Shown: positions 1 to 18,781, numbered from the stretch's first letter. The stretch: 64,000 bases of DNA from a virus (IMGVR_UViG_3300022074_005559); one strand, 5' to 3'. Translations and numbers: made by a program. The notes: generated by a model not told the origin, from the letters alone.

Positions 1-20
1 ACGTAGCAACACTTAACCGT

Positions 21-1599: not shown

Positions 1600-1628
1600 T
1601 TGACTAAAATAAAGGGTTACAGTATAAT
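1600..1628 (+). promoter_or_regulatory. sigma70-like promoter TTGACT-N17-TATAAT
   Basis: TTGACT 1600-1605, 17-nt spacer, TATAAT 1623-1628. Confidence 0.8.
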
Positions 1629-1646
1629 ACACTGTAACCTTTTTTT
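1611..1646 (+). terminator. Intrinsic terminator overlapping the -10 box
   Basis: GGTTACAGT-ataatac-ACTGTAACC followed by T7. Confidence 0.7.
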
Positions 1647-1651
1647 AAGAC

Positions 1652-2239
1652 ATGAATAAAGATTTCGCATTTATATTAGGCAATGGTATTACTAGACTAC
1701 AAGTAGACTGTGAAGGTCTTCTTGACTATGGATATGTGTACGGTTGTAATAGAATATACCAAGAGTTTGCTTCTACTGTGTTAGTTAGTACTGATGCAGG
1801 TATGGCAAGAGAAATACAAGGAAGTGGATATAGTTCGAGATACACGCACTATACAAGAAAAAAACACATAATAAAAAATCGTGGATCTCGTGTACTGCCA
1901 GCTCATTTACATGATTATAGCAGTGGTCCTGCGGCTTTGGGTATAGCTGCATCTAGTGATAGCAACTATCTTTTTATGATAGGCATGGATCTCAAAGGAA
2001 AAAACAATATGATTAACAACATATACGCAGGCACACCTAACTATCTAGACAATAATGCAGATCCAACTTTTTTTGGTAACTGGGTAGATCAAGTAAACAC
2101 GCTAATGAAACTATACAGTAACAAAAGATTCTTTCATGTCAATCCTTTAGATAACTTTACAGATGAAAGTTTTAGAAAAAATCCTAACTTCACTGTGATG
2201 ACTTTAGAGGAGTTTAAGAGGATGATAAATAAAGTATAA
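1652..2239 (+). CDS. Maf/DUF115 (MptE-like, CstII-fold) putative glycosyltransferase
   Basis: Motifs FILGNG, YGCNRIY, VLVSTD, SSGPAALGIA, LFMIGMDL. Confidence 0.6.
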   Translation: MNKDFAFILGNGITRLQVDCEGLLDYGYVYGCNRIYQEFASTVLVSTDAGMAREIQGSGYSSRYTHYTRKKHIIKNRGSRVLPAHLHDYSSGPAALGIAASSDSNYLFMIGMDLKGKNNMINNIYAGTPNYLDNNADPTFFGNWVDQVNTLMKLYSNKRFFHVNPLDNFTDESFRKNPNFTVMTLEEFKRMINKV

Positions 2240-2257
2240 CGCAGGATTGTTAAAAGA

Positions 2258-2896
2258 ATGGCACAAACCAAAAGAGTATCTGGTACCTATACTATTAGCG
2301 CAAGCAGTTTTACGCTTGACAATGATGTAACTGTCACTGGTAACCTTACAGTTACTGGTACTACTAATAGTGTTGAAACTACAAACACAAGGATCACTGA
2401 TAATATTGTGACTTACAACCAAGGCGCATCGGGCGCAGGTGTTGGAGGTACTGGATTTAGTGGTATTGAGATTGAACGTGGTAGTTTAGACAATGCGTTG
2501 CTAGTGTTTGATGAATCAGATGATACATTTAAAATCAGTACTGATGGAGGTAGCAGTTATGTCAGTCTAACAACCGGCAGCGGCGGCATAAACAATGTTG
2601 TAGAAGATACAACTCCGCAGCTCGGCGGTGACTTAGATATTAATGGCAAAAATATTGTTAGTGCTACAAGTAACATGGATATTCAACTTATTCCTAACGG
2701 TACAGGTCGTGTTACAGTAACAAGTGCCCTAAAACTTAACGATCAAGTAAGTGCTCCTAGTAGTGCTACAGGTGCTACACTGCTTTACGCTGACACAGCG
2801 GCAGGCGGAGGCACTGGTGTGTTTTTTGTAGATGGCAGTGCTAGTGATGAACTAGTAAGCAAAAGTAAAGCCATCGTATATGGTTTGATTTTTTAA
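2258..2896 (+). CDS. Fibre/baseplate-associated structural protein
   Basis: Late promoter GATAAATA 2224-2231; shared fibre module VTGNLTVTGTT...GIEIERG...FDESDD. Confidence 0.7.
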   Translation: MAQTKRVSGTYTISASSFTLDNDVTVTGNLTVTGTTNSVETTNTRITDNIVTYNQGASGAGVGGTGFSGIEIERGSLDNALLVFDESDDTFKISTDGGSSYVSLTTGSGGINNVVEDTTPQLGGDLDINGKNIVSATSNMDIQLIPNGTGRVTVTSALKLNDQVSAPSSATGATLLYADTAAGGGTGVFFVDGSASDELVSKSKAIVYGLIF

Positions 2897-2907
2897 AGGA
2901 CAGGTAA

Positions 2908-3216
2908 ATGGCAATCAGTCAACAAGCAGTAGGAACAAGTGCAACAACAGTTTATACTAGCACAAACACAACAGCAATCACTTGTATGTTCTTTATGAAC
3001 GACAATGCCGCTGCAAGAACACTAGATGTTCATGTTGTAAAAAGTGGTGAGTCACCAGGCACAGCAAACAAGATTGTAAAAACTATTACTATTGATCCTG
3101 CTGATACATATGTTATTAATATTGAAAAACTTGTGTTGGACAATGGTGACACAGTCCAATGTGTTGCTAGTGCAGCAACAAGTGTCTATGCAACAGTCAG
3201 TTCAGTGAGTATCTAA
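2908..3216 (+). CDS. Small beta-rich virion protein
   Basis: SD GGA/AGGT; in the structural operon; Thr/Ser/Val-rich. Confidence 0.65.
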   Translation: MAISQQAVGTSATTVYTSTNTTAITCMFFMNDNAAARTLDVHVVKSGESPGTANKIVKTITIDPADTYVINIEKLVLDNGDTVQCVASAATSVYATVSSVSI

Positions 3217-3656
3217 TGGCAGGTTTTGTAAAAAACAAAGGTAGTTTTGATGGTGGTAACACAATCAAAGCAGATGAAATCGGTGCAACAGGAACACCTT
3301 CAGGCGGATCTGCAGATAGACCAAATGATCCAGAAACAGGTGATCTTCGCTTTAACACAGATGATGGTGCGTTAGAAGTTTATGATGGCACTCAGTTCAA
3401 AACACTTGCGACTAGTGGTACTGCAACCATTACACAGGATAGCTTCACAGGCGATGGATCAACTACTGCATTCACAATGAGTACTAGTGTAACTAGTGAC
3501 CAAGAACAACGCATTATTGTAGCAGTAGGAAACGTTTATCAAAATCCAGCAAGTGCTTACACAGTAAGCGGTACAACTATTACATTCACAAGTCCGCCGG
3601 GCGCCGCAGAAACAATCACTGTTGTACACGGTTTCGATAGCACTACCGCAGCCTGA
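3216..3656 (+). CDS. Fibre-module protein
   Basis: RP...GDLRFNT..LEVYDG and FTGDGSTTAF...VYQNP..YTVSGTTITF..PP modules shared with 7205 and 8483. Confidence 0.7.
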   Translation: MAGFVKNKGSFDGGNTIKADEIGATGTPSGGSADRPNDPETGDLRFNTDDGALEVYDGTQFKTLATSGTATITQDSFTGDGSTTAFTMSTSVTSDQEQRIIVAVGNVYQNPASAYTVSGTTITFTSPPGAAETITVVHGFDSTTAA

Positions 3657-3728
3657 TAAATACATGCAACAAACCCTGGCACCTCGGATGTTAGCATGGT
3701 GTTCGCAGGATAGCGGAGTGTATTAAGT

Positions 3729-6700
3729 ATGGCTATTAGTCGTATTGGCGGTAAAGCCTTAAAAGCAAATCTAGAACGTGATAGCAATCTTACTTTCAAT
3801 ACTGACACTCTAACGGTTGACTATACCAATGATCGTATTGGTATTGGCACAACTAACCCTTCAGAAAAACTCAGTGTAACGGGATCAGCAACTATTAGTG
3901 ACACGCTAACAGTTGATACTAGTGCTGACATTGATGGCATCCGCATCATTGATAACAACATTCAAGCAACCAGAACTAACGATGATGTTACTATTGTACC
4001 AAGTGGTACAGGCAGTGTTAACGTTAGTTCAAGTGTTATTAGCAATGTAGTTGATCCAGTATCAGCACAAGATGCTGCAACTAAATCATATGTAGATGCA
4101 CAGATAAGCGGTAATGCAATCGGCACAGGCATGCAGATTACATTAGGTACTCCTACAGATAGTAGTCTAGTAACAGATTCTATGTACAAAAGTTTTGTAA
4201 CAGGGACAAAAGTTACAGATGCTATTGACGATCTTAACGAAGCAATACAAAACGTACTTAATAGTACCGCAGTTAGTAATGTAGACTTTGTTGCTGATAC
4301 AACAAGTGGCGGTGCAGGTACAACAGTAACACTTACTATCACAGCAGATGGTAATCCAAACAGATATGATATTACTTGGGGCGATGGTGATACCACAACA
4401 GGTACAACAGACAGCACCCCAAGTCACACTTATGCCACCAACACAGGCAGTCCATTTAGTGTAACAGTTAGAGCATACAATAATGGTGGTAGTGGCTCTG
4501 GAAGCGAAGAAAGTAAAACTCGTACAGATTATATAACAATCTTCACCGCTGACCCAGTTGTGAGTTTCGCGGCATACGCGGCAAGTTCTGGAGGTTCGCC
4601 CATCACAGTGTGGAACGACGGTGACACGATTTATTTTCAAAACAATACTACTAATATCGGTAGCGCAACAATCCAGTTTACTTGGGATTGGGGCGACAGT
4701 GAATCAGATGATGTTATCACTGACGATACAGCAAATGGTGGCACAGCGGGCGGACGACTTGCTCACACATTTACTGCCAGTACTGAGACAGAAGTACAAC
4801 GCACTGTTAGACTAACACTGGATAGCCATAGCACAGCATTGCCTGCTAGTATACCAACCAACACTACAAACACATACAAGATTTATGACACACATACACC
4901 TACTGTAACACTTGATGACAACAGTGGTGTAAACGAAGAAAGCACCAGTGGTCACGTTGTAAGTCTTACAAATACAACAGAAGCAGGTGTAGGAAGTTAT
5001 GCTACATACGGCATACAATATCAATACCAGTTTGGTGATGGCACAAGCAATGTCACTGTTAACGCTGGCAGCGGATCAGTAGGTGATAGAAACGTTGCAC
5101 TAAGTCATACATATGCACTAAGTTCAAGTGACCAAGCAAATGGCACTGCACGAGACTATACAGGTAACCTGCGTGTAATCAGTAACCACACAAGTTCACC
5201 ATTTATAAGCAGTACATTTACAGTACACGTTGAGCCAGATGTTAGAGCAAACATTGCTGGTACGGCAATTAGTGTTAGTGATGGTAGTGGTGATGATCAG
5301 TATGACATTTATAATTTTACAGATTACAATGGTGTAAACAGAGCAAGAGTGCGCATGACAAACACCAGTCAAAATGCAGATGATTATGTTTATGTATGGG
5401 GTGATGGCGACACAGACAACGTAACAGAAGATGGTACTAGTGCAGGTAGTATAGGAGCAGTGATTAATCACAACTATCTAGGTGAAAGCACAGGTAGTTA
5501 CAATGTGTCATTCACAGCAAACGGCACACCAGATTTGACTGCCCAAACAGATGTAGACACAAGCATTACATTCAACATAAAAGCAACACCAAGTGCTCCA
5601 ACAAGTTTAAGTGGCAAAAGTCTTACATTAAGTGACAGTGCGCAAGGCACAAGTCCGTTGCTTGCAGCAAACTTTGATGACAACACTAGTTCAGCAACAA
5701 CACTCAGTGCTGGTTCTAACCTAAACACTACAACAGCAAGACGATATACCAGTGGCACTATTGACACCAGCACAGTCAACGACGCATACAATGGTGTAAG
5801 TGGTACACTAGCCGCAGAGATCAATGCCAGTGATGATGGAACAAAAACATTTAGTACAAGCACGGGCGAAACAGGCACATTTACAAGTCTTGTGGTTAGT
5901 CAAAACGTTGATTATCATGATATTGATGCAAGTTATCCAAGTGATTTTTATCAAACGTTTGACGCAAAAATCACAAAAGCACTTACAGGATATACTGTAG
6001 GACTAAACGCACAGCGACTAACACACACTACAACAGGCAACACAAACTATGTGTATGTGCTAAAAGATGATATGACAGGCAGTCCTAGTTTCGGAGCAAC
6101 AGGCACACTTAGTGAAGGTACTGGTGGTACAAAGAGATTTATCTCTGGTATTCCCTATTACAACACTGGCAGTCCAACTTTAACACTAAGCGGAGTAACT
6201 GTAAACAACCTTGTAGGTCAGGCATACACAAATCAAAATGACATTGTTGAAGTAGATCCTGGTACAAACTATGAAAGTACTAGTAATAGTGCTATTCAAA
6301 ATGAAAACTACACTTATGCGAATATTTTAGAATCTGGACAACTCAGCAGTGGCATTCCTGTAAAAGACATTGGTACAAGCAGTGCTTACAGTATCAAAGA
6401 TCTCACAGTGGACATTACAACTTCAAGTGTGCGCACTGTTGAAGCACCGCGTATCCGTGCAAGAAATGTTAATGGATCCAGCAGTTATACACAACTTAGC
6501 ACAAAAGTACAGGTGCATAGAAGCGCACAAAGTGGCATCAGTGAGATTGCTATTGCGGTAAGTGACAGTTTAGGTGCTACATATGATGACGATGCTGTGC
6601 GTGTATTTGATTTCAGTGCAGACACTACTAACACACCAAGTTACACAAGTAGCACAAACTTTTACACAAACAGTGTGTACGGTGAAAGTGCAGATCCGGG

Positions 6701-7205
6701 TGTGAGTGGTACACAAGAAGCAACTATTAGACTGGGTATACTAGAACACAATGTAATAGACTATAGCACAGGGTTCCTACCAGTGGGTCCTGACAGAAGC
6801 GGTGATACTGGCACACAGTATTTTACATTTGCATTCCGCAGAACTACAGTTAGTAACTTTGATATCAACATCACAAGTTCAAGTGGTGTAAGTGGTGTGT
6901 TTATTGCGGCACCAGGTACAGGCATTGATGACAGTAGTGGACTCAACGGTTGGCTAGATTGTAGTACAACATATGGTGGTAGTGGACAACCCGGCAGTGA
7001 CACAGGCAATGGTGGTAATGGTTCAAACGGTTGTGCATTTACATCAGGTGATAGAATAGTAACAGGCACTGCACTCAGCGGTGGCTATACAATGACACTG
7101 GGCAGTGAGAACATGTCAAACGCTCAGGATAATGTAGTGTTGGTGCGTATTGCACTAGCAAGTGGCGAAAGCGTAACTGCATTAAGTATAGGAGTTGCTA
7201 GTTAA
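3729..7205 (+). CDS. Large PKD-repeat virion/adhesin protein (1158 aa)
   Basis: Four W/FGDG-type PKD signatures (ITWGDG, WDWGDS, YQFGDG, YVWGDG) each followed by HTY/HTF/HNY; DPxSAQDAATKxYVD motif; late promoter 3655-3662. Confidence 0.75.
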   Translation: MAISRIGGKALKANLERDSNLTFNTDTLTVDYTNDRIGIGTTNPSEKLSVTGSATISDTLTVDTSADIDGIRIIDNNIQATRTNDDVTIVPSGTGSVNVSSSVISNVVDPVSAQDAATKSYVDAQISGNAIGTGMQITLGTPTDSSLVTDSMYKSFVTGTKVTDAIDDLNEAIQNVLNSTAVSNVDFVADTTSGGAGTTVTLTITADGNPNRYDITWGDGDTTTGTTDSTPSHTYATNTGSPFSVTVRAYNNGGSGSGSEESKTRTDYITIFTADPVVSFAAYAASSGGSPITVWNDGDTIYFQNNTTNIGSATIQFTWDWGDSESDDVITDDTANGGTAGGRLAHTFTASTETEVQRTVRLTLDSHSTALPASIPTNTTNTYKIYDTHTPTVTLDDNSGVNEESTSGHVVSLTNTTEAGVGSYATYGIQYQYQFGDGTSNVTVNAGSGSVGDRNVALSHTYALSSSDQANGTARDYTGNLRVISNHTSSPFISSTFTVHVEPDVRANIAGTAISVSDGSGDDQYDIYNFTDYNGVNRARVRMTNTSQNADDYVYVWGDGDTDNVTEDGTSAGSIGAVINHNYLGESTGSYNVSFTANGTPDLTAQTDVDTSITFNIKATPSAPTSLSGKSLTLSDSAQGTSPLLAANFDDNTSSATTLSAGSNLNTTTARRYTSGTIDTSTVNDAYNGVSGTLAAEINASDDGTKTFSTSTGETGTFTSLVVSQNVDYHDIDASYPSDFYQTFDAKITKALTGYTVGLNAQRLTHTTTGNTNYVYVLKDDMTGSPSFGATGTLSEGTGGTKRFISGIPYYNTGSPTLTLSGVTVNNLVGQAYTNQNDIVEVDPGTNYESTSNSAIQNENYTYANILESGQLSSGIPVKDIGTSSAYSIKDLTVDITTSSVRTVEAPRIRARNVNGSSSYTQLSTKVQVHRSAQSGISEIAIAVSDSLGATYDDDAVRVFDFSADTTNTPSYTSSTNFYTNSVYGESADPGVSGTQEATIRLGILEHNVIDYSTGFLPVGPDRSGDTGTQYFTFAFRRTTVSNFDINITSSSGVSGVFIAAPGTGIDDSSGLNGWLDCSTTYGGSGQPGSDTGNGGNGSNGCAFTSGDRIVTGTALSGGYTMTLGSENMSNAQDNVVLVRIALASGESVTALSIGVAS

Positions 7206-8335
7206 TGGCTATTACAGATACCCAAAAAGTTGACTACCTTTGGAAAAAACTAGGTTACGCTGCAACTAAATCTGATACCAATGCTAACAAAAAAGCACCT
7301 AACGAAGCGATTGCATCGCCTCTTATACTTCGTGCAGACAAAGTACTAAAAGACTCGTCTAGTATTCCAAGCACACAGCCTGCAAGTAGCACAGGTGTTG
7401 TTACTGTGTATCCAACAAGCAGTCCTATTGAAACAACACTGGATAATACTGCAACTGCAAACAGAACTTGGAAAACAGGACAAACAGATTGGATCTCTCC
7501 AGAGTTTGGTAGTACATATCAAGTAAAAGTTTACATTCACACCAGCAGTGATGCCGCTGGCGCTAGTGGCGGAGATCAAGTGTTTGCCACAGGTAGTGGC
7601 AATGATGATGAATGGTTCTTTGACTATCAGAGTGGTGTGCTACACTTTATTGGTACTAATCTGCCTAATGGTATTAATTTTACTGGTAAGAGTGTTTACA
7701 TTGCAGGTGCAAGATACAGCGGTGAGTTTGGTGTAGGTGGTGACTTAGGTGCATTTACTTTTACAGACAACAGACTGCAAACCACTGTAACTAACGAAGA
7801 GATTATTATTGAACCTGCTGGCACAGGGTATGTTAAAGTAGACGCAAGCAGTGGACTTATTGTTCCTGTTGGAAGTACTTTAGAACGTCCTAGTGGACAA
7901 ACTGGTATGATGCGTTTTAACACCACTACAAGTTTGATGGAAGTATACAATGGTAGTGCATGGGTCAACGTAGGTGGTAGCACAGTTACACTTGATGAGT
8001 TTGATGGAGATGGCACTGATACTGCATTTACACTTTCACAAAGTGCTACAACTGCAACTGTTATTGTTAGTATGAATGGTACTGTACAAGAAGCAACAAA
8101 CACATATACAGTAAGTGGAACTACACTGACTTTTAATGAAGCACCTGTTACGGGAGATAAAATACAAGTAAGAAACTTTTTCAGCGGAAATGAGTTACAA
8201 CCTGCAAGCAAGTTTCAAAGTTATACTACAACTCAGCGTAACTCATTAAGTCCTAGTAATGGTGATGTGATATATAACACTACTACACATAAGTTTCAAG
8301 GTTATGCAAATAGCGGTTGGGTAGACTTCCACTAA
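7205..8335 (+). CDS. Fibre/baseplate structural protein
   Basis: Shared modules VPVGSTLERP..GMMRFNT and FDGDGTDTAF..NGTVQE..YTVSGTTLTF. Confidence 0.7.
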   Translation: MAITDTQKVDYLWKKLGYAATKSDTNANKKAPNEAIASPLILRADKVLKDSSSIPSTQPASSTGVVTVYPTSSPIETTLDNTATANRTWKTGQTDWISPEFGSTYQVKVYIHTSSDAAGASGGDQVFATGSGNDDEWFFDYQSGVLHFIGTNLPNGINFTGKSVYIAGARYSGEFGVGGDLGAFTFTDNRLQTTVTNEEIIIEPAGTGYVKVDASSGLIVPVGSTLERPSGQTGMMRFNTTTSLMEVYNGSAWVNVGGSTVTLDEFDGDGTDTAFTLSQSATTATVIVSMNGTVQEATNTYTVSGTTLTFNEAPVTGDKIQVRNFFSGNELQPASKFQSYTTTQRNSLSPSNGDVIYNTTTHKFQGYANSGWVDFH

Positions 8336-8482
8336 TAGATAAATAAGTTTGTAAGAACTTCCTTTTTACAACATTCCCCCTCTTTATAACGTCTGTAATG
8401 CTTTTTTTTTCAGGCGCTGATTCATCACGGCTATTGATAAATATGCTTATAGATAAGACCGTGATTGGAGTAGAGACACAAA

Positions 8483-10945
8483 ATGGCTATTACACGAATT
8501 AAAACTAACCAGATTACTGATCTGGCGGTAACTACGGCTAAACTTGCTGCAAACGCAGTTACAGCAGCAAAGTTGGAGAACAATCTTACCTACGGCAGTG
8601 ACCTTACTGTCTCAGGTAACTTAACAGTTTCAGGTACAACAACAAGTGTTAGTACCACAAATACAAGAGTTGAAGACGCTATCATTGCACTTGCCGCTGA
8701 AACCAGTGGCACGCCAAGCAATGACGCAGGTCTCCTTATCAACCGTGGGTCAAGCGACAACCAAGCATTCCTTTGGGACGAAAGTGCAGATGAGTTTGTC
8801 ATGGCTAACGTTACATCAGAGGATGGTGATACAGCAGGTAACGTAACAATCGGCAGTTACGCAACTTTACAAATAGGCAACCTAACAGCCGTAGCACCAA
8901 CATTTAGTGGTGCAGTAAACATTGATAATACAACAGCATCAACAAGTGTATCAACAGGTTCACTTATTGTTGACGGTGGTGCAGGTGTTGCAGGTGCGCT
9001 GTTTGTTGGTGGAACATTTGATGTTGCATCAGGTCAAACAGTTGACTTTAACACAAACGCACTAACAAATGTTGCAGATCCAAGTGGTGCACAAGATGCA
9101 GCAACTAAAGCATATGTTGACAGTGAAGTATCAAGTGGTTCAACACTGGCTATTGCTGGTGATAGTGGCACAGACAACGTTATTGTTGGTACTAACACAT
9201 TTACTTTTAGTGGTACTGCTAATGAGATTGTTACAGCGGTAACAGACAACACAGTAACTATTAGTTTGCCGGATGATGTAACAATCGGCGGTGATGCAGT
9301 GGTTACAGGTAACTTGACAGTTAACGGTACTACAACTACTATCTCTACAACAAACAGTGTGGTTAGTGATAACTTGATCGAACTTAACAACGGTGCAAGT
9401 TCAAATGCTAATGACAGTGGTATTGTTATTGAGCGTGGTTCAACAGGTGACAATGCAATCTTTGCGTGGGACGAAAGCGCAGATACATTTATTGTTGGTA
9501 CAACAACAGCAACAGGTGCTAGCACAGGCGATCTTACAATCACAGCAGGTGCTTTCCAAGCAGGCGCAGCTACACTTGACAGTGCATCAATTGGCGGCGG
9601 CTATGGTTCAACAGGTGCTACAATCAGTAGTGCAGGTGTTGGTCAATTCAACGGCGCAGTTACAGTTGACGGACTAACAAGTGCAGATGGCGGTATAGAT
9701 GTAAACGGTGCAAACTTTGCAGTTTCAACAGCAGGTATTGTAACAACTGTAGAAGATATCCGTATTACAGCAGACAGCAAGCAACTTGAGATTGGTGCAG
9801 GTACAGACTTTACTATTGGGCACGATGGTACAGATACAACTATAACTAACAGTACAGGTATTCTTAAGATTGATGGTGCAGCTTCAAGTTCAATCCGTGT
9901 TAACGAAGCAGGCGCAGACGTAGACTTTATCATTGAAGGCGACAGTGCTACATCATTGTTTGTAGTAGATGCAGGCAACGACAACGTTGGTATTGGTGGA
10001 GCAGCAAACGCAAACGCAATCTTCCATGTTAACGACACAGGTGCAATGATTCTTGCTGCAGGTACAACTGCACAGCGTCCAGGTACAGCAGTTACTGGTA
10101 TGTTCCGTTATAACACAACCACTAACCAGTTAGAGTATTATGATAACGATAGTTGGGAATCACTAAGTACAGCGTTTACACTAGCAACATCACAAACATT
10201 TAACGGTGACGACAGTACAACAGACTTTAGTTTGTCATCACTTAGTGGATCTGATAGCTACACTGTTGCTGGTATACTTGTTATGCTAAACGGTGTGGTA
10301 CAAGAACCAACAACTGTATATGGCTTGAGTGGTAACACACTACAGTTTACAACAGCACCTGCAACAGGTGATTTGATTGAAGTTCGTAAGTTTACAACAA
10401 CAACTACAGTTACAGCAGTAAGTGATGCAGACGGTGACACACTAGTACAAGTTGAAGAGTCAAGTGATGAAGATATTATCCGCTTTGATGTAGGCGGCTC
10501 GCAGATTGCAAGAATTGAAAGTACAGGCATTATCCTAGATAGTGGTAAAACTTTCCAAGGTACAGCAACAGCAGCACAATACGCTGACTTGGCTGAAATG
10601 TATGCCACTGACACAGATATTGAAGCAGGCACAGTTGTACACTTTGTTGGTGAAGGTAAACTTGCAGCATGTGATACAGAAAACTGTCGTGCAGTAGCAG
10701 GTATTGTATCAACAGATCCAGCATACTTAATGAACAGTATGCAAGAAGGTGCAGCACTTGCACTAGCAGGTCGTGTACCATGTAAAGTAACTGGTGCAGT
10801 GGCGGCAGGTGACTTGATGGTCTCAGCAGGCAACGGTATGGCAATGGCTAATAACGAAGCAGCAATGGGTACTGTGATTGGTAAAGCGATTGAAGCAAAC
10901 GCAGATGGCGAAGGCGTCATAGAAGTTCTAGCACTAATGATGTAA
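8483..10945 (+). CDS. Tail fibre-like protein with C-terminal YADLAE chaperone-like domain (820 aa)
   Basis: Gly/Thr/Ala-rich beta repeats; C-terminal AQYADLAEMY...GIVSTDPAYLMN...GRVP...IGKAIE. Confidence 0.8.
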   Translation: MAITRIKTNQITDLAVTTAKLAANAVTAAKLENNLTYGSDLTVSGNLTVSGTTTSVSTTNTRVEDAIIALAAETSGTPSNDAGLLINRGSSDNQAFLWDESADEFVMANVTSEDGDTAGNVTIGSYATLQIGNLTAVAPTFSGAVNIDNTTASTSVSTGSLIVDGGAGVAGALFVGGTFDVASGQTVDFNTNALTNVADPSGAQDAATKAYVDSEVSSGSTLAIAGDSGTDNVIVGTNTFTFSGTANEIVTAVTDNTVTISLPDDVTIGGDAVVTGNLTVNGTTTTISTTNSVVSDNLIELNNGASSNANDSGIVIERGSTGDNAIFAWDESADTFIVGTTTATGASTGDLTITAGAFQAGAATLDSASIGGGYGSTGATISSAGVGQFNGAVTVDGLTSADGGIDVNGANFAVSTAGIVTTVEDIRITADSKQLEIGAGTDFTIGHDGTDTTITNSTGILKIDGAASSSIRVNEAGADVDFIIEGDSATSLFVVDAGNDNVGIGGAANANAIFHVNDTGAMILAAGTTAQRPGTAVTGMFRYNTTTNQLEYYDNDSWESLSTAFTLATSQTFNGDDSTTDFSLSSLSGSDSYTVAGILVMLNGVVQEPTTVYGLSGNTLQFTTAPATGDLIEVRKFTTTTTVTAVSDADGDTLVQVEESSDEDIIRFDVGGSQIARIESTGIILDSGKTFQGTATAAQYADLAEMYATDTDIEAGTVVHFVGEGKLAACDTENCRAVAGIVSTDPAYLMNSMQEGAALALAGRVPCKVTGAVAAGDLMVSAGNGMAMANNEAAMGTVIGKAIEANADGEGVIEVLALMM
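9302..9540 (+). repeat. Fibre module near-duplicated at 13498-13740
   Basis: TGNLTV.GTTTTISTTNS.V.D.LIELN.GASSNAND.GIV.ERGSTGDNAIF.WDESAD.F.VGTTTATGASTG in both the 8483 and 12679 proteins. Confidence 0.9.
10519..10945 (+). repeat. C-terminal YADLAE domain repeated at ~15673-16059 and ~17185-17598
   Basis: Aligned protein motifs; the DNA stretch compared (around YADLAEMY) differs at third codon positions. Confidence 0.85.
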
Positions 10946-10964
10946 TCAACAACGCATATAAAAG

Positions 10965-10990
10965 ATAGCACCTTAGGGTGCTATTTTTTT
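10965..10990 (+). terminator. Intrinsic terminator
   Basis: ATAGCACC-TTAG-GGTGCTAT followed by T6. Confidence 0.9.
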
Positions 10991-11035
10991 GAGTGATGTG
11001 GTAGATAAATACACATACTATAAAGGATTACACGA

Positions 11036-12679
11036 ATGGCATTTACAAGACCAAAAGCCTCCCAGATTAACTTTGATGTAACCAATATTTCTGATACACT
11101 TATACGCTTAAATAGTGGTCAGACAGGAAGTGCAGACAAAGACGTTGGACTGGTTATTGAACGTGGCAGTGATACAAATGCTGCTTTTTTGTATGACGAA
11201 AGTGCAGACCAGTTTGTATTAGTAAATACCACAGAAGATGGAACCACAAGCGGTAATGTAACTATAGCAAGTTATGCTGGGCTACGGACAAATGCTATTG
11301 TATATGGCAGTCTTAATGATGGGACTACAACACTAACATCAACAGTTGCAGAACTAAATAACCTAGATGGTGTCACAGGCATTTCACTGGGCAGTGCTAA
11401 TGAACTGGTTATTGTTGATAGCGATGGTACAGGCTTCACAAGTAGTAGCACACTAAGCATTGATACCGGCAACAACTATATTGGTATAAATCAAAGTTCA
11501 CCCGAAGTAACACTGCATATGACAGGCGATGGTGCACAGACTGCACAGATTCGCATGGAGCAACACAACGATACAGCAGATGCTCCAGATGTAAGAACAC
11601 GCAGAAGTAGAGGCACAGCCGCAAGTCCAAGTAACCTCAATGCAGGCGATTATCTGTTTCGAATCAATGCAGAAGCATACGAAAGTGGAACTTATAACAC
11701 AAAAGGCAGTATTCAACTTGACACAAGTTCAGCTGATGTCAGCAAAGGTGTAATACAGTTTCAAACACACGACGGAACAAGCCTAGCAACTAGATTACAA
11801 ATACTAGACAGTGGTGCTGTTAGATTTAACAGTGCTTATACATTCCCAACAGCAGATGGCAGTGCAAACCAAATATTAACCACTAATGGTAGTGGAGTAT
11901 TGAGTTTTGCAAGTCCTGCTAGTAGTAGTTTTACACTTGCTGCTGATAGCGGTACAAGTGATTCATTCAGTACTGGCGGAACATTAACTTTTGATGGCGG
12001 CACAGGTATTGATACAACTGTAAGCAATGATCAAATAAGCATTGCTATCGACAGCACAGTCGCTACACTTACCGGCAGTCAGACACTAACAAACAAAACA
12101 CTAACAAGTCCAAATATAAACGAGGCGGTTGCATTAACTAGTACTGCAACTGAACTAAATCTACTGGATGGCGCAAGTGCTGGTACAGTAACAGCAAGCA
12201 AGGCTGTTATCTATGACAGCGATGGCGGCATTGTTGCAGGCGGCGATATTAATCTTAACGATGCAGATGATCAAATAATTCACGGTGATGCAAGTTATAA
12301 ACAAAAGCAATATGTGCTATACGGCACAACTACAAATGGATCAGAAACAGAAATCTTTATTGGCGGCACTAGTAACAGTCGCATACCAGTAGCAACAGAC
12401 ACAACAGTATTTTACGAGTGTGACATTGCAGCAAGACGCACAGATGCAACAGGTGAAAGTGGTGGCTGGCACTTAAAAGCAGTTGTTGATAACTTCAGCG
12501 GCACTGTTGCTGACGTAGGCAACGTGTATGAAGTTCAAGTTGCATCTGATGATGAAAACTTTGAAGTGGATGTAGCGGCTGACAATTCAAACAATGCAAT
12601 AGCAGTAAAAGTTACAGGTGCAGGCGGTAAGACAATTCGTTGGGTAGCAATAGTGAGAACATTTGAGGTAACAGAATAA
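11036..12679 (+). CDS. Tail fibre-like structural protein (547 aa)
   Basis: Late promoter 11004-11011; modules GLVIERG..FLYDESAD, FPTADGSANQILTTNGSG, QTLTNKTLTSP. Confidence 0.75.
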   Translation: MAFTRPKASQINFDVTNISDTLIRLNSGQTGSADKDVGLVIERGSDTNAAFLYDESADQFVLVNTTEDGTTSGNVTIASYAGLRTNAIVYGSLNDGTTTLTSTVAELNNLDGVTGISLGSANELVIVDSDGTGFTSSSTLSIDTGNNYIGINQSSPEVTLHMTGDGAQTAQIRMEQHNDTADAPDVRTRRSRGTAASPSNLNAGDYLFRINAEAYESGTYNTKGSIQLDTSSADVSKGVIQFQTHDGTSLATRLQILDSGAVRFNSAYTFPTADGSANQILTTNGSGVLSFASPASSSFTLAADSGTSDSFSTGGTLTFDGGTGIDTTVSNDQISIAIDSTVATLTGSQTLTNKTLTSPNINEAVALTSTATELNLLDGASAGTVTASKAVIYDSDGGIVAGGDINLNDADDQIIHGDASYKQKQYVLYGTTTNGSETEIFIGGTSNSRIPVATDTTVFYECDIAARRTDATGESGGWHLKAVVDNFSGTVADVGNVYEVQVASDDENFEVDVAADNSNNAIAVKVTGAGGKTIRWVAIVRTFEVTE

Positions 12680-15600
12680 TGGCAAGACGCGAACGAAGTT
12701 TCTTTTTTAACAACAAAACTGGTGCACTAAAATCCAAAGGTAAAACCATTATCGCTGCCACAGCAGATAATGTGCTTGAACTACGTGGCGGCAATAGTGG
12801 GCAACAAGTTGGTCTTATTGCTGTAGGAGATGATAACAATATTGATATTGCGATCACGCCCAAGGGCAACGGTGAAGTTAATATTGCAGCAGGAAACCTA
12901 AACTACGCCGGAACTGCAATAACTGCTACAGGTGCAGAACTTAACTTTGTAGATGGTGTAACTAGTAATATTCAAACACAGTTAGATGCTAAAACAAATA
13001 ACACTGGCACAGTGACCAGTGTTGCTGGCACTGGCACAGTAAACGGACTTACACTTAGTGGCACAGTAACTAGCAGTGGAAGTTTAACTCTTGGTGGTAC
13101 ATTAAGTATAACTGAAAGTCAAATCAGCGATTTAGGTACTTACTTAACTGCAAGTGATATTACTGGGAAACTAAATCTAAGCGGTGGAACCATGTCTGGT
13201 GCTATTGCGATGGGCACTAATAAGATTACTGGAATGGGCGATCCTACTTCAGCACAAGATGCCGCAACTAAGGCATATGTAGACAGTAATGTTAGTAGTG
13301 CTGCAAACGATGCTACTATTACAATCACTGCAAGCACTGGTCTTAGCGGTAGTGCATCCTTTACTACAGACCAAAGTTCAGACGAGACTATTACACTAGC
13401 TATAGACAGTACAGTCGCAACACTTACTGGTGCACAAACACTTACAAATAAAACACTGACAAGTCCAACTATTGAAACAATAAACAGTGATCTTACTGTA
13501 ACAGGTAACTTAACAGTAAGTGGAACAACAACTACAATATCAACAACAAATAGTACAGTAGCAGACAGTCTTATTGAACTAAACACTGGCGCAAGCAGTA
13601 ACGCAAATGACTTGGGTATTGTTATGGAACGTGGTAGCACTGGTGACAATGCTATCTTTATATGGGATGAAAGTGCTGATAAGTTTGTAGTAGGCACTAC
13701 AACTGCAACTGGAGCAAGTACAGGCAACTTATCTGTTACCACAGGCACTCTTGTTGCAAATATTGAAGGTAATGTAACAGGTAACGTAACAGGCGATGTA
13801 ACTGGTAATGCTGACACTGCAACTGCTCTTGCAACAGCAAGAAACATTGCTGGTCAAAGTTTTGACGGCTCCTCGGCTATTACTATTGCAAGCACAGATT
13901 TAAGCGATACAAGTTCTATCACACTTAATGCTGCAACGCAAACTTTAACAAATAAAACTTTGGGTGCTACTACTATTGCAGGGCATATTGTTCCTGATAC
14001 TGATGATGCATACGATTTAGGATCTTCTAGTTTAAAGTTTAAAGACTTGTATCTCAGCGGATCAAGTCTTTTCTTGGAAGCATTTTCATTACAAACACAT
14101 GCTAGTGGTATTACGTTTAACCATAGTTCAAACACTACGCTACTTCCTGTAGGCGGAGGAAGTCATACACTAGCAACTCTTACTGCTACACAAACACTTA
14201 CAAATAAAACACTTACAACCCCAACAATAAATGGATTCAGTGGCACAGGAAATGGCACAGTAACAGGAAACTTAACTGTAACAAGTAATGTAAATGCCGA
14301 TAACTTTACTACTGAAGGATTGAAGATAGTTGACAACAACATTCAATCTACTAGAAGTAACGATCATATTAACCTTGTGCCAAACGGTACAGGCAGTGTA
14401 CAAATTAACGGCAGTGTATGGCCCACAGGACTAGGCACAGATGGTTATGTGCTTACTACAGATGGCGCAGGCACACTTACATGGGCTGCAGCAAGCGGCG
14501 GCGGGCAAACTGCTGGTCATACTATTCAAAATGCAGGATCAAACTTAACAGCAAGAGCTGGTCTTAACTTTGATGGTACATACTTAATCGCAACAGATGA
14601 TAGTGGAAATAGTCAAACTGATGTTACAGTCAGCAGTGCATTGCAAACAGTTGCAGGCATTACATTCCCTAGCGGAGCAGTGATTGGCTCAAGCGATACA
14701 CAAACATTAACAAACAAAACAATAGATAGTGCAAGTAACACACTTACACTAGATTTAAGTGAAGGCACACTTACAGGCACTACAGCAGAGTTTAACACTG
14801 CACTTAGTGATGATAGTTTTGTTACACTTACAAATACTGTAACACTTACAAATAAAACTCTAACAAGTCCTACTATAACTGGTGCAAGTTTGACATCCCC
14901 AACAGTGACTACCGCTGTAACACTAAACGCACAAGCAGATTTACGCTTTGCAGATAGTGATAGCAGTCATTATGTAGGTTTTAAAGCACCTGCTACAGTA
15001 ACAGCAAACAATATTTGGACTTTACCAGCAGAAGATGGTTCTAACACACAGGTACTAACTACCGATGGTAGTGGCACACTTAGTTGGACTGACGGCGGCG
15101 GAGGCGGCGGTGCAAGCACACTAGGTGGTCTAAATGATGTGACAGTATCAAGTATAGCAGTAAACGACTTGATAGTTTATACTGGAAGCGGTTTTGAAAA
15201 TAAAGCAAAACATGAAGTTGTACCAACTGTAAACTTTACAAAAAGAGACGGTACAGCAGTTCTTATTGAACTTACAAATGCTTATGATACTACTACAATA
15301 CTAGGATATATGAATGACAGAGTTTCTCAAAAATACCGCATGGCATTTACAGACAGTAGCGGTACTAGTCATACTACACTGCAAACTGGACTAGATAGCG
15401 TTCCTGAATTATCAAATGCTAGAAATATCGGCGGCGTATCATTTAACGGAAGTGTTGATATAGATTTGCCTGGTGTTAACACTGCTGGTAATCAAGATAC
15501 AAGTGGCACAGCAGCCATTGGAACTTCAGTAACAGTTACCGCAAATAACACAGCAAACGAAACAGTATACCTTACATTTGTAGATGGCGCTACTGGTACA

Positions 15601-16059
15601 CAAGGTATTGAAACAGATACAGGATTAACATACAATCCTAGCACAGGAAATCTTGGTGCATCAATATTTACTGGTACAGCGACATCAGCACAGTATGCTG
15701 ACTTGGCTGAGATGTATGCTACAGATGAAAAAATAAGTGCAGGCACTGTAGTAATGTTTGCTGGAGCAGGCAAAGTAAAGCCTTGCAATGATGAGAACTG
15801 TAGACGAGTAGCAGGTATTGTTAGTACAGATCCTGCATATCTAATGAATAGCGCATGTGAAGGCGTGCCACTTGCTATAAGTGGTCGAGTACCTTGCAGA
15901 GTAATAGGCCCTGTTGAAGCAGGTGACTTAATGGTAAGTGCTGGAAATGGAATGGCAATGACTAACAATGATGCAAAGTCTGGAACAATCATTGGTAAAG
16001 CAATTGAAGAAAATGTTAATGGCGAAGGCATCATTGAAATACTAGCAATGATGATGTAA
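12679..16059 (+). CDS. Long tail fibre-like protein with C-terminal YADLAE domain (1126 aa)
   Basis: Many QTLTNKTL repeats, DPTSAQDAATKAYVD, C-terminal domain shared with 8483. Confidence 0.8.
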   Translation: MARRERSFFFNNKTGALKSKGKTIIAATADNVLELRGGNSGQQVGLIAVGDDNNIDIAITPKGNGEVNIAAGNLNYAGTAITATGAELNFVDGVTSNIQTQLDAKTNNTGTVTSVAGTGTVNGLTLSGTVTSSGSLTLGGTLSITESQISDLGTYLTASDITGKLNLSGGTMSGAIAMGTNKITGMGDPTSAQDAATKAYVDSNVSSAANDATITITASTGLSGSASFTTDQSSDETITLAIDSTVATLTGAQTLTNKTLTSPTIETINSDLTVTGNLTVSGTTTTISTTNSTVADSLIELNTGASSNANDLGIVMERGSTGDNAIFIWDESADKFVVGTTTATGASTGNLSVTTGTLVANIEGNVTGNVTGDVTGNADTATALATARNIAGQSFDGSSAITIASTDLSDTSSITLNAATQTLTNKTLGATTIAGHIVPDTDDAYDLGSSSLKFKDLYLSGSSLFLEAFSLQTHASGITFNHSSNTTLLPVGGGSHTLATLTATQTLTNKTLTTPTINGFSGTGNGTVTGNLTVTSNVNADNFTTEGLKIVDNNIQSTRSNDHINLVPNGTGSVQINGSVWPTGLGTDGYVLTTDGAGTLTWAAASGGGQTAGHTIQNAGSNLTARAGLNFDGTYLIATDDSGNSQTDVTVSSALQTVAGITFPSGAVIGSSDTQTLTNKTIDSASNTLTLDLSEGTLTGTTAEFNTALSDDSFVTLTNTVTLTNKTLTSPTITGASLTSPTVTTAVTLNAQADLRFADSDSSHYVGFKAPATVTANNIWTLPAEDGSNTQVLTTDGSGTLSWTDGGGGGGASTLGGLNDVTVSSIAVNDLIVYTGSGFENKAKHEVVPTVNFTKRDGTAVLIELTNAYDTTTILGYMNDRVSQKYRMAFTDSSGTSHTTLQTGLDSVPELSNARNIGGVSFNGSVDIDLPGVNTAGNQDTSGTAAIGTSVTVTANNTANETVYLTFVDGATGTQGIETDTGLTYNPSTGNLGASIFTGTATSAQYADLAEMYATDEKISAGTVVMFAGAGKVKPCNDENCRRVAGIVSTDPAYLMNSACEGVPLAISGRVPCRVIGPVEAGDLMVSAGNGMAMTNNDAKSGTIIGKAIEENVNGEGIIEILAMMM

Positions 16060-16094
16060 CACTTGATAAATATACTAAAGACAGGATAGTTTAA

Positions 16095-17012
16095 ATGGCA
16101 GCAAAAACACCGATTAAAGCAACCTTTAGTGGTAGCGATGTAACTGGACTAGCAGAATATACCTCATCGGATTTTATTGAAGTCGCTGACGGTGGTACTG
16201 GTGTAGTCACACTTACTAGCGGCGGTGTTCTTGTTGGCGCTGGTACAGGTGCAGTAACTACTAACAAAGCCGCTCCTAGCGGAGATTTTGTTGGTACTAG
16301 CGATACACAAACGCTGACAAACAAAACACTGACTACTCCAACATTGACTACTCCGTTGGCAAATGCAGGATTACAACTAAAAAACGGTGCTACCAGTGCT
16401 GGCTTTATTGAGTTTTTTGAAGATAGTGATAACGGCACTAACAAGGCTACATTAATAGGTCCTGCAAGTACTGCTGACGTTACAATCACATTACCTGCCG
16501 CAACAGATACACTAGTTGGTAAAGCAACTACAGATACACTAACAAACAAGACACTTACATCTCCAACAATAACAGAACCAGAAGTTAGTACTACGCTGGA
16601 CATGAATGCCCAAGCAAGCACACGTTATTATGACAGTGATAGCAGTAACTTTGTAGCATTTAAGGCGCCAGCTACAGTGGCTACTAGCTTTACTATGTCA
16701 TGGCCCGATGCAGATGGTGCTAGTGGACATGTTATGACCACAGACGGTGCAGGTAATCTAAGTTTTGCAGCCGGCGGTGGCGGAGGTAGTAGTTCTGGGT
16801 ACAATAACAGTACCATTAGTACTATTCCAGGTAAAAACGGTAACTTTGATTTAAGTTATAATGTGGCACAAACAGTGCAAGAAACACCATTCGACAGCGG
16901 AGCAACAGATCCATTTGGAGTTAACTTGGGCAGTGTGTTTTCAATGATGGATCCAGTTGGTACAATTGAAGACAATAGCGGCGATGGTTTAGATCTAGGT
17001 GCATTTACATAA
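16095..17012 (+). CDS. Fibre-module structural protein
   Basis: Late promoter 16065-16072; TLTNKTLT repeats; DSDSSNFVAFKAPATV module shared with 12679. Confidence 0.7.
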   Translation: MAAKTPIKATFSGSDVTGLAEYTSSDFIEVADGGTGVVTLTSGGVLVGAGTGAVTTNKAAPSGDFVGTSDTQTLTNKTLTTPTLTTPLANAGLQLKNGATSAGFIEFFEDSDNGTNKATLIGPASTADVTITLPAATDTLVGKATTDTLTNKTLTSPTITEPEVSTTLDMNAQASTRYYDSDSSNFVAFKAPATVATSFTMSWPDADGASGHVMTTDGAGNLSFAAGGGGGSSSGYNNSTISTIPGKNGNFDLSYNVAQTVQETPFDSGATDPFGVNLGSVFSMMDPVGTIEDNSGDGLDLGAFT

Positions 17013-17040
17013 TAAATATAGGATATAGCAGGAGCAAAAG

Positions 17041-17598
17041 ATGCCTACAGTATTACAGTTTCGTAGAGGAACAGCAGCACAAAACAATGCGTTTACCGGC
17101 GCAGCAGGTGAACTTAGTATCAACACTGATGTTGATAGTATTCGAATCCATGATGGATCGACAGCAGGCGGCTTTGAAACAAACGCTAAAGAGGCAACAT
17201 ACGCGGACGTGGCAGAACGATATCAAGCAGATGCCGAATATGATCCAGGCACACTATTAGTATTTGGCGGCGAACAAGAAGTCACAGAATCAACAACAGC
17301 AATCAGTAAACGTATTTCTGGGATTGTAACAACTGATCCATACTGTGTGATGAATAGTCCAAAAGACCGTAGAGATGATCCAACCTTTCCTGCAATGGCT
17401 CTCTTAGGTCGTGTACCTGCTAAAGTAGTAGGCGAAGTACAAAAAGGTGATTTAATGGTATCTAGTGATACTGCCGGTCATGCTTGTGCATGGACTGAAG
17501 AAGGTTCACCACCTGCTGGCAGTATTGTTGGTAAAGCAGTTGAGGACAAAACTGGTGCAGAAGCCGGTGTTATTGAGGTAGCAGTAGGAATCAACTAA
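17041..17598 (+). CDS. Mtd_N-like domain fused to a YADLAE domain (mini-fibre or chaperone)
   Basis: N-terminal LQFRRGT...GEL.INTD..IRIHDGSTAGG; C-terminal YADVAERY...TTDPY..MN...GRVP; late promoter 17011-17018. Confidence 0.65.
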   Translation: MPTVLQFRRGTAAQNNAFTGAAGELSINTDVDSIRIHDGSTAGGFETNAKEATYADVAERYQADAEYDPGTLLVFGGEQEVTESTTAISKRISGIVTTDPYCVMNSPKDRRDDPTFPAMALLGRVPAKVVGEVQKGDLMVSSDTAGHACAWTEEGSPPAGSIVGKAVEDKTGAEAGVIEVAVGIN

Positions 17599-17599
17599 C

Positions 17600-18334
17600 A
17601 TGCCCCAGGGTCGGTTTTATACCGCAGACTACTTGGGAGAGATGGTTAGCGCAAATACTAGTTGGAAAGATAGAAAAGACCCAAGTACAATGACTTGGGT
17701 TGAAAAAACTATCTTCAACGAAGATCATGATAACATTGCACATGTTATTGGCAACAGTAAAAGGCGTCTCTGGCTTGATTTAAACTTACTTAAAGGACAA
17801 ACAGGCGGTAAAAAAGTTCGCAGTGTAGGGCAAACTTACGGTTGTAACTTACTTTATAAAGACTTTAATCCTACGTTTCTTGTTTGTACAAACAAAAATA
17901 TTTGCGATGAGCTTGCAAATCAGAGATACGGCGATGACAACATTGTATTCTCAAACGTAAAAAATATTTTACAACATCCTGGACATTTTCATTTATATCC
18001 TCAACTTTACAGTGCAAGTGCAGGTAATCTAGCACTTACTCTAGCATGTGCAGACGGTCATAAAACAGTGTACATGATTGGTATGGATACTTATTCTCAG
18101 CCTGACGACAATGTATATACAGAGGATTACGGTCTTGCAGATGTGCAAGGTGCAAACAACAAGTTTATCTCTGAGAACTGTAAGACGTTTTTAACTTATA
18201 GTGATGTACAGTTTTACTATGTCAGTGACAAAGCAACTATAATGCCAGAACAATACAACTGGTGTCCTAACGTAAAAAAACTAGAATGGATGCAGTATGT
18301 AAGCCTAGCAAGCCTGGGTGCTATTGCACATTAA
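17600..18334 (+). CDS. Second Maf/DUF115 (CstII-fold) putative glycosyltransferase
   Basis: HVIGNS, TYGCNLLY, FLVCTN, SAGNLALTLA, VYMIGMD; paralog of 1652-2239. Confidence 0.6.
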   Translation: MPQGRFYTADYLGEMVSANTSWKDRKDPSTMTWVEKTIFNEDHDNIAHVIGNSKRRLWLDLNLLKGQTGGKKVRSVGQTYGCNLLYKDFNPTFLVCTNKNICDELANQRYGDDNIVFSNVKNILQHPGHFHLYPQLYSASAGNLALTLACADGHKTVYMIGMDTYSQPDDNVYTEDYGLADVQGANNKFISENCKTFLTYSDVQFYYVSDKATIMPEQYNWCPNVKKLEWMQYVSLASLGAIAH

Positions 18335-18781
18335 ATCTTCAATAGTTTTTATTTTACTAACAATCTCATCAATCTGAAAAGTAGTAAACACGCCTGGATG
18401 CAGTGGCTTGGGCCAGGCATCTAGTTTACTCCAAGCATAACCTTTATGTTCGTGATTAAGTGTAGGTAAAAACTCTTCTTCTACAACACAAACATATGAA
18501 CTGTAAGTAAAGTTATTTTTCTTATTAGTAAACTTTTCTACTGGGATAGTTTTAAGCACAAGAGGCATAAAGCCTATTTCTTCAACTATTTCTCGTTGTA
18601 GTGCAGTGTACTCTGTTTCGCCTTGTTCTGTTTTTCCACCAACAAAAGCCCATGTGCTATCGTGTTTTGCACCATTGCGTAGTACAAACAAGTAACGTTT
18701 AGTTGATTTACTGAAGAATAATGCTCCAACACTAGCGTTAAATGACGATACTCCAGTCGCCTGCTCGATATTCGCCTTCAT
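18305..18781 (-). CDS. Nudix hydrolase
   Basis: Nudix box GGKTEQGETEYTALQREIVEEIG. Confidence 0.9.
   Translation of the reverse strand: MKANIEQATGVSSFNASVGALFFSKSTKRYLFVLRNGAKHDSTWAFVGGKTEQGETEYTALQREIVEEIGFMPLVLKTIPVEKFTNKKNNFTYSSYVCVVEEEFLPTLNHEHKGYAWSKLDAWPKPLHPGVFTTFQIDEIVSKIKTIEDLMCNSTQAC

Follow-up and report, generated by a model that had tools for sequence, protein, structure and literature searches.

The subject of this report is a block of tail-fibre genes, and the two small proteins, P0001 and P0002, encoded at its two ends, in a 64,000-nucleotide (nt) stretch of viral DNA (IMGVR_UViG_3300022074_005559), the whole of which is referred to here as the window. We find that the two proteins are paralogs of the Maf/CstII fold, and what is new is the conserved bracketing of the fibre block by this pair, and how tightly one of the two goes with a single fibre domain. 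The window derives from an uncultured, marine, T4-like jumbo myophage. The capsid proteins nearest to its own belong to the jumbo phages Phosso (469 kilobases, kb), Vibrio 2.275.O (349 kb) and PA5oct (287 kb), and given that CheckV rates related 134-kb IMG/VR records as 37% complete, the genome is probably about 350 kb in size. GenBank phages yielded no near DNA match to the window, and none either by tblastn with P0002.

Behind the capsid genes, a single same-strand block extends from a terminator-like hairpin to a strand switch at 18334 (Table 1). In order, it holds the P0001 gene, three small and then six large open reading frames (ORFs), the gene of a fibre protein whose N-terminal domain is Mtd_N, and lastly P0002, whose start lies 1 nt behind the stop of the Mtd_N gene. 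Ser and Thr together make up 22-28% of the ORFs between the two enzymes, compared with 12% of the enzymes themselves and a median of 13% among the 55 long ORFs of the window, and by their PHROG and Pfam matches the ORFs of the cassette encode proteins of the tail fibre or virion; the third large one carries the T7 tail-fibre N-terminal domain of Pfam. Among relatives, the modules of the large fibre genes are shuffled. The first-pass annotation of this DNA, made from the sequence alone, had placed two paralogous transferases exactly at the ends of a Ser/Thr-rich fibre cassette, and this layout is borne out, P0001 following the hairpin behind the capsid genes and P0002 being the last plus-strand gene before the strand switch. 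In the intergenic element upstream of P0001, the hairpin and its T-run overlap a near-consensus sigma-70-like promoter. The element is kept in close relatives (L111-L114), where the stem shows compensatory changes, and in the distant relatives G025 and G028 the equivalent position holds a hairpin and T-run only. As read from its sequence, the element is predicted to be the point from which the fibre block is transcribed. There is no enrichment of the T4 late-promoter motif TATAAATA, and no copy lies near the cassette.

P0001 and P0002 are true paralogs. BLASTP aligns them over 195 columns at 24% identity (E 6e-15), comparison of the two family alignments by hhalign gives a probability of 100% over 186 columns (E 1e-46), and in the six-frame translation of the window each family profile picks only the other ORF (E 9e-28 and 8e-35). 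Both ORFs are present as first described and share the motifs GN(G/S)xxR, YGCN, LV.T(D/N), S(S/A)G and MIGMD. Neither has a Pfam match, and both match phrog_30607, for which no function is annotated; a search of NCBIfam with the family returned nothing, and a literature search found no paper describing the family in phages. At E <=1e-3 the family counts 710 cluster representatives, and its IMG/VR loci number at least 577, all unannotated. In one metagenomic member, P0065 (435 residues), two P0001-like domains are naturally fused in tandem. This fusion hints that family members may act as dimers or pairs, an idea that fits the recurrent paralog pairs in phages. A homolog 67% identical to P0001 is found in a contig (L085, PBLX01000007.1) of a 'Legionellales bacterium' metagenome-assembled genome (MAG). 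The contig probably stems from a jumbo phage and was placed in the bacterial bin by mistake, and several other MAG contigs with family matches may be mis-binned too.

Structural models support the fold that had been proposed for both proteins. AlphaFold2 models, built from alignments of 49 homologs for P0001 and 39 for P0002, reached a predicted local distance difference test score of 97.0 and a predicted template modelling score of 0.92 for P0001, and 90.8 and 0.89, respectively, for P0002. In a VIA-align structural search against 48,161 PDB representatives, Maf of Magnetospirillum magneticum (5mu5) came top for both models and covered nearly the whole phage protein, with Z 13.2 and 170 of 195 residues aligned for P0001 (root mean square deviation, rmsd, 3.6) and Z 12.6 and 196 residues aligned for P0002 (rmsd 4.5). 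It was followed by MptE, the archaeal 6-hydroxymethyl-7,8-dihydropterin diphosphokinase (8sd5; Z 9.3 with 132 residues aligned for P0001, Z 10.8 with 157 for P0002), SteA, Cst-I (Z 9.2-9.4), eukaryotic GT29 sialyltransferases and thiamin pyrophosphokinases (Z 6-8). Foldseek placed CstII and Cst-I chains top for both models (E 1.4e-4 to 4.5e-4, probability 1.0) and Maf lower, the TM-scores to CstII and Cst-I being only 0.4-0.57. At the level of sequence, the P0001-family profile found nine GT42 sialyltransferases among PDB sequences (E 1.2e-8 to 2.1e-7), and no kinase and no Maf at E up to 10; the P0002-family profile reaches GT42 only at E 0.018-0.06. The GT42 enzymes (PF06002; 1ro7, 2p2v, 9c08), namely CstII and Cst-I from Campylobacter jejuni and Cst-I from Pasteurella multocida, are the only solved proteins reached by profile. 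Like the phage proteins, they are of similar size and have a single catalytic domain, and the blocks aligned with the P0001 family are GNGxS...CN, gapless over 35 residues, and SSG...GxD.

MptE and the thiamin pyrophosphokinases have the same core fold, and P0001 and P0002 could be kinases of this kind, or another nucleotide-dependent enzyme acting on a small molecule or on a sugar hydroxyl. MptE is the second-best structural match, SteA and thiamin pyrophosphokinases come after it, and the weak Pfam matches of the family fall on a family named MptE-like. However, Maf scores 1.8-3.9 Z units higher than MptE, with 38-39 more residues aligned, the profiles reach GT42 only, with neither 8sd5 nor a pyrophosphokinase at E up to 10, the genes here have no pterin or thiamin context, and the P0001 family conserves just two acidic positions, whereas in pyrophosphokinases of this fold a larger acidic cluster holds Mg. 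The earlier preference for a transferase over an MptE-type kinase is therefore upheld by both fold and sequence. That P0001 and P0002 are sugar transferases is quite probable, and that they are kinases or something else of this fold is improbable, the rest of the odds being left unassigned.

To which family of transferases do they belong? Maf has three domains, the N-terminal one Rossmann-like and the C-terminal one helical and resembling FliS and flagellin (PMC11339370). Of its ~630 residues, the phage proteins correspond to the central domain (PF01973, with the modified GT-A fold termed Maf_flag10) alone, in 195 and 244 residues, and no Maf sequence is reached by the family profiles. Against PF01973, the scores of distant homologs are 19-30 bits, below the cutoff of 34.6, and only one domain of P0065 exceeds this gathering cutoff with 49.9 bits; a sequence search with P0065 reached neither 5mu5 nor 8sd5. 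No PF01973 protein was found in the archaeal and bacterial MAGs reached via family loci or in the 13 genomes searched from a single archaeal order, and a search for longer family relatives gave no Maf-type protein. PF06002 is matched by 2 of 49 P0001-family members (best E 8.6e-5), and not by P0001. In CstII and Cst-I, His188 and His202, respectively, are catalytic (PMC4202792), whereas these residues have no conserved phage counterpart, the position of CstII His188 falling, in a hidden Markov model alignment, on non-conserved residues near P0001 G142. Given that they consist of a single domain and lack a PF01973 match, P0001 and P0002 are not Maf proteins, and given that they lack the catalytic His and that neither matches PF06002, they are not clear GT42 members. 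Within the Maf/GT42/PF01973 superfamily they make up a branch of single-domain proteins that is divergent and carried by phages, and it is Maf and GT42 that they would most resemble in action.

The conserved residues of the P0001 family outline a putative active site. Invariant or nearly so are G10 N11 G12 x S/T14 R15, C32 N33, Y36, D48, S91 G92, G111 x D113, N123 x Y125 and Y131; D48 is kept in 48 of 49 members and D113 in all 49, and position 91 is Ser in 37 and Ala in 10. In the P0001 model these positions lie at the C-terminal ends of strands and where helices begin, the place at which proteins of this fold usually have their ligand crevice. Mutagenesis of Maf enzymes has identified an essential acid, a Ser and a second acid or Asn, namely E324 and D415 of MmMaf, D272, S334 and D357 of CbMaf, and D285, S356 and N379 of GkMaf (bioRxiv 10.1101/2020.06.03.131540). 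P0001 has a putatively equivalent acid...Ser...acid pattern in D48...S90/S91...D113, with a Ser-to-acid spacing of 23 that is the same in CbMaf and GkMaf. As for a possible donor site, the GNGxS, CN and SSG motifs align without gaps to CstII, in which the donor-site motifs are an N-terminal GNGPS, CN31 and S132-G133. Two tyrosines that follow GxD in CstII, Tyr156 and Tyr162, have donor-site roles (bioRxiv 10.1101/2023.08.01.551455). In P0002, Y165 stands two residues past D163 (GxDxY), as in G-I-D-F-Y156 of CstII, and the tyrosines of P0001 lie further along the loop, in N123-x-Y125 and at Y131.

The P0002 family has a constellation of its own, with conserved N52, R56, C82, N83, H131, H154, Y165, N171, Y173, Y177, N186 and K188, the two histidines being located elsewhere in the chain than His188 of GT42. 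Where P0001 has D48, P0002 has N98 (29 N and 7 D in the family), and CstII has N51. A conserved N-terminal extension of 44 residues is specific to this family, and the representatives with Thr at position 163 form one clade. It may be asked whether P0002 serves chiefly in the assembly or docking of fibres, as a pseudoenzyme in which the fold has been kept, leaving P0001 as the only working transferase. P0002 would then occupy the classic chaperone slot directly behind a receptor-binding fibre gene, with a conserved 1-nt coupling; an entire clade has lost the GxD Asp, the serines of SSG are variable, Asn stands at the first acidic site, and the extension would suit such a role. Nevertheless, the twelve residues around the presumed site, from N52 to K188, are near-invariant, which fits ligand binding or catalysis, and Asn occurs in working enzymes at comparable places, at the second acidic site in the active GkMaf and at the first in CstII. 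As far as sequence can tell, the P0002 site looks remodelled rather than decayed, and a mainly non-catalytic role for P0002, in docking or assembly, appears unlikely.

We find that the link between the two enzymes and the fibres is conserved across phage lineages. The same gene order, capsid gene, P0001-type gene, three small ORFs, fibres, Mtd-type fibre and P0002-type gene, recurs in four other lineages, represented by the IMG/VR records G001, G002, G025 and G028; given this recurrence, the bracketing arrangement is not due to chance. The three small ORFs come after the P0001-type gene in all five lineages examined, and the fibre genes between the enzymes vary in number and make-up while both enzymes stay. 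Relative to the window, G001 and G002 have capsid proteins 95% identical, P0001 homologs 38-60% and P0002 homologs 47-60% identical; in G028 the capsid is 84% and the enzymes are 32-36% identical, and in G025 the P0001-type enzyme is 37% identical. A comparison of records L109, L111, L192 and L193 with the window gives 32-60% identity for the enzymes, 84-95% for the capsid protein and 71-86% for gp15. Judging by such identities, P0001 and P0002 appear to diverge about as fast as the mosaic fibre genes and far faster than capsid and gp15.

The coupling is tightest at the P0002 end. Of the 65 IMG/VR loci that extend far enough upstream, 61 show an ORF that ends <=120 nt upstream of the P0002 homolog and has the C-terminal domain of the Mtd_N protein of the window. 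This domain of ~140 residues, for which neither a Pfam match nor a PDB sequence match was found, ends three fibre proteins of the window, the third and the fifth of the large ones and the Mtd_N protein, and only the last copy has a P0002-type gene behind it. A diversity-generating retroelement behind the repeated domain was considered and rejected, the DNA copies in the two large fibres being just 71-72% identical. The NUDIX gene that faces P0002 from the other strand is a frequent and not a constant companion, being a neighbour of the P0002-type gene in 30 of 77 related loci. Taken as a whole, the fibre link is a conserved, lineage-level association, and good circumstantial evidence rather than proof.

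The same enzymes might instead transfer a sugar from a nucleotide, CMP (cytidine monophosphate) or other, to an acceptor that is not a fibre, such as a product of the phage's own glycan islands, which they would cap or extend, or a glycan of the host envelope; shared late timing or history would then account for their location in the fibre block. The closest sequence relatives, CstII and Cst-I, modify oligosaccharides and not proteins, the substrate of CstII being lipooligosaccharide sugars, and the phage proteins have no counterpart of the flagellin-related C-terminal domain of Maf. A large sugar-tailoring island, with methyltransferases, sulfotransferases, a radical S-adenosylmethionine enzyme, a GT8-like protein and a cytidylyltransferase-cupin fusion, is located in the window itself (Table 1). 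In addition, two paralogs in the cultured pelagiphage HTVC008M, gp002 and gp007 (record L108, 752-4983), flank a Nol-like carbamoyltransferase and two 2-oxoglutarate-Fe(II) oxygenases in the early region, and this region looks like a small tailoring cassette. Yet the fibre bracket is kept where the enzymes are down to 32-37% identity, the P0002 homologs keep company with a single fibre C-terminal domain, and the island is 26 kb distant. A non-fibre acceptor is, on this balance, rather unlikely. With regard to three further ORFs of the island, a KpsS/KpsC-like identity had no single-sequence Pfam support and is not used here.

A question remains, which sugar would be transferred? The first-pass annotation had inferred flagellin-style O-glycosylation of the fibres with a nonulosonic acid, pseudaminic or legionaminic, by Maf-type enzymes. 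Maf is indeed the best structural match, and Maf enzymes modify Ser/Thr with such sugars. However, a search of five larger records with a P0001-type gene, including one of 345 kb that is 99% complete, found neither NeuB (PF03102) nor a CMP-sugar synthetase (PF02348), and five P0002-clade fragments, searched for the synthetase only, have no PF02348 match. In MAGs, the surroundings of family homologs offered no usable signal for synthetase genes. The Maf three-domain architecture is lacking, and a supply of the sugar by the host cannot be assumed. A nonulosonic acid donor made by the phage is thus unsupported, and the flagellin-style version as a whole is highly improbable. What stands of the earlier interpretation is the fold and the conserved link to fibres, and what falls is the identity of the enzymes as Maf.

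Given the lack of a CMP-sugar pathway in the related records, any CMP-sugar donor must be supplied by the host. If the donor is a CMP-sugar, CMP-3-deoxy-D-manno-octulosonate (CMP-Kdo) is our guess as the likeliest, being the only donor of this kind made by Gram-negative hosts in general. Maf enzymes put Kdo or N-acetylneuraminic acid on Ser/Thr from CMP donors (bioRxiv 10.1101/2020.06.03.131540). In the glycan island, the fusion of a cytidylyltransferase-like domain to a mannose-6-phosphate isomerase-type cupin is an unusual pairing, and it may make an activated donor for the neighbouring genes of the island.

Table 1. Features of the window discussed in the text, with positions counted from its first nucleotide
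Feature	Position	Strand	Remarks
Major capsid gene gp23	3-1028		PF07068, E 1.9e-100
Intergenic element	1600-1651	+	Contains the next two features
Sigma-70-like promoter, TTGACT-17-TATAAT	1600-1628	+	Near-consensus, 11/12 match; overlaps hairpin
Terminator-like hairpin and T-run	1615-1639	+	11-bp hairpin stem
P0001	1652-2239	+	195 aa; first gene of fibre block; Maf/CstII fold, single domain
Small Ser/Thr-rich ORF, first	2258-2896	+	Weak tail-fibre/virion PHROG match
Small Ser/Thr-rich ORF, second	2908-3216	+	Weak tail-fibre/virion PHROG match
Small Ser/Thr-rich ORF, third	3216-3656	+	Weak tail-fibre/virion PHROG match
Large Ser/Thr-rich mosaic fibre gene, first	3729-7205	+	
Large Ser/Thr-rich mosaic fibre gene, second	7205-8335	+	
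Large Ser/Thr-rich mosaic fibre gene, third	8483-10945	+	Shared C-terminal domain at 10559-10945
Large Ser/Thr-rich mosaic fibre gene, fourth	11036-12679	+	
Large Ser/Thr-rich mosaic fibre gene, fifth	12679-16059	+	Shared C-terminal domain at 15673-16059
Large Ser/Thr-rich mosaic fibre gene, sixth	16095-17012	+	
Fibre protein with Mtd_N N-terminal domain	17041-17598	+	185 aa; PF18454, E 5.6e-10; shared C-terminal domain at 17170-17598
P0002	17600-18334	+	244 aa; last gene of fibre block; P0001 paralog with 44-residue N-terminal extension
NUDIX hydrolase gene	18305-18781	-	PF00293, E 6e-14; convergent, 30-nt overlap with P0002 3' end
gp15-type gene	18738-20126	-	PHROGs label: tail sheath or sheath stabiliser
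Sugar-tailoring island	44-57.6 kb		
Cytidylyltransferase-cupin fusion	56085-56867		PF01467 fused to PF01050

The reading that we tentatively prefer, at somewhat under even odds, is that the fibre module is served by two minimal Maf/CstII-like transferases, P0001 and P0002, which would probably use a CMP-activated acidic sugar supplied by the host. The two proteins would be metal-independent, inverting glycosyltransferases that bind the CMP-activated sugar in a crevice at the C-terminal edge of the beta-sheet, lined by GNGxSR, CN, D48/N98, SSG, GxD and the N-x-Y...Y loop. The sugar would be taken from the host pool, with CMP-Kdo as the obvious candidate, and moved onto Ser/Thr of the fibres, or onto a glycan that the fibres carry, during fibre production. 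P0001, with a Maf-like triad of acid, Ser and acid, would be the standard catalyst, and P0002, with its remodelled site and N-terminal extension, would be tied to the fibre gene with the particular C-terminal domain. The proposed chemistry would resemble that of Maf, in which a CMP-activated acidic sugar is transferred to Ser/Thr of a surface filament protein.

Several observations weigh against this picture. Ser/Thr richness is typical of fibre proteins in general, and no gene for a CMP-sugar synthetase or NeuB was found in the searches of related phage records described above. Among 80 diverse loci of the P0001 family, fibre-module genes lie just downstream in 34 of 66 and a capsid gene just upstream in 29 of 51, so that recognisable fibre-module neighbours are found at only about half. 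None of the three paralogs of HTVC008M is beside fibres, the third being located between uvsY and uvsW. Neither P0001 nor P0002 matches PF01973 or PF06002, and the P0001 family has no conserved His, aligned with His188/His202 of GT42 or elsewhere. The equation of D48, S91 and D113 with the essential residues of Maf is inferred from spacing and position in the fold and not from a residue-level superposition. In the P0002 family the SSG serines are variable and the GxD Asp (163) is Thr in 15 of 39 representatives.

In a bolder form, a widespread marine jumbo phage lineage would take an acidic sugar from the host, Kdo for example, and O-glycosylate its tail fibres with it by a dedicated system of two minimal single-domain enzymes of the Maf/CstII type. 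P0001 would be the general catalyst and P0002 the specialist for a single fibre C-terminal domain, inherited together with it, both evolving as fast as the fibres in adaptation to host range or to anti-phage defence. This fuller scenario is possible, and on present evidence doubtful.

How does the pair compare with known systems? Maf genes are found with flagellin and a nonulosonate pathway, whereas the phage genes lie among fibre genes with neither of these nearby. Within phages, the P0001-family profile weakly matches pmgO of phage P1 (E 1.6e-4, in the SSG...GxD...NxY region). PmgO and PmgP are likewise a pair of small single-domain proteins of the same fold, encoded in a late or morphogenesis region; they are listed as 'putative morphogenetic' and uncharacterised, and PmgO bears the RefSeq name alpha-2,3-sialyltransferase. 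Their kinship with P0001 and P0002 is very distant, however, and the two genes are adjacent to each other beside a DxD glycosyltransferase and not at the ends of a fibre block. A precedent for phages that glycosylate their own structural proteins comes from mycobacteriophages, where the modification is not on fibres; their virions are glycosylated at the C-termini of capsid and tail-tube proteins (Freeman et al. 2023, cited in PMC12619734). As far as is known, the mycobacteriophage enzymes are of other glycosyltransferase folds.

To our knowledge, there is experimental proof of phage particle glycosylation for no more than a few mycobacteriophages, in which the fibres are not the part modified. 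Our findings suggest, and do not prove, that in the phage described here the fibres are sugar-coated by a pair of enzymes. If this is true, decoration of fibres with an acidic sugar would add a layer to the way in which abundant marine phages recognise their hosts or avoid being trapped or recognised themselves, and the family would provide a minimal Maf/CstII transferase of ~200 residues with potential use in glyco-engineering. Given that the family is large and unannotated, and that its P1 relatives pmgO and pmgP are uncharacterised too, one biochemical result would name many genes.

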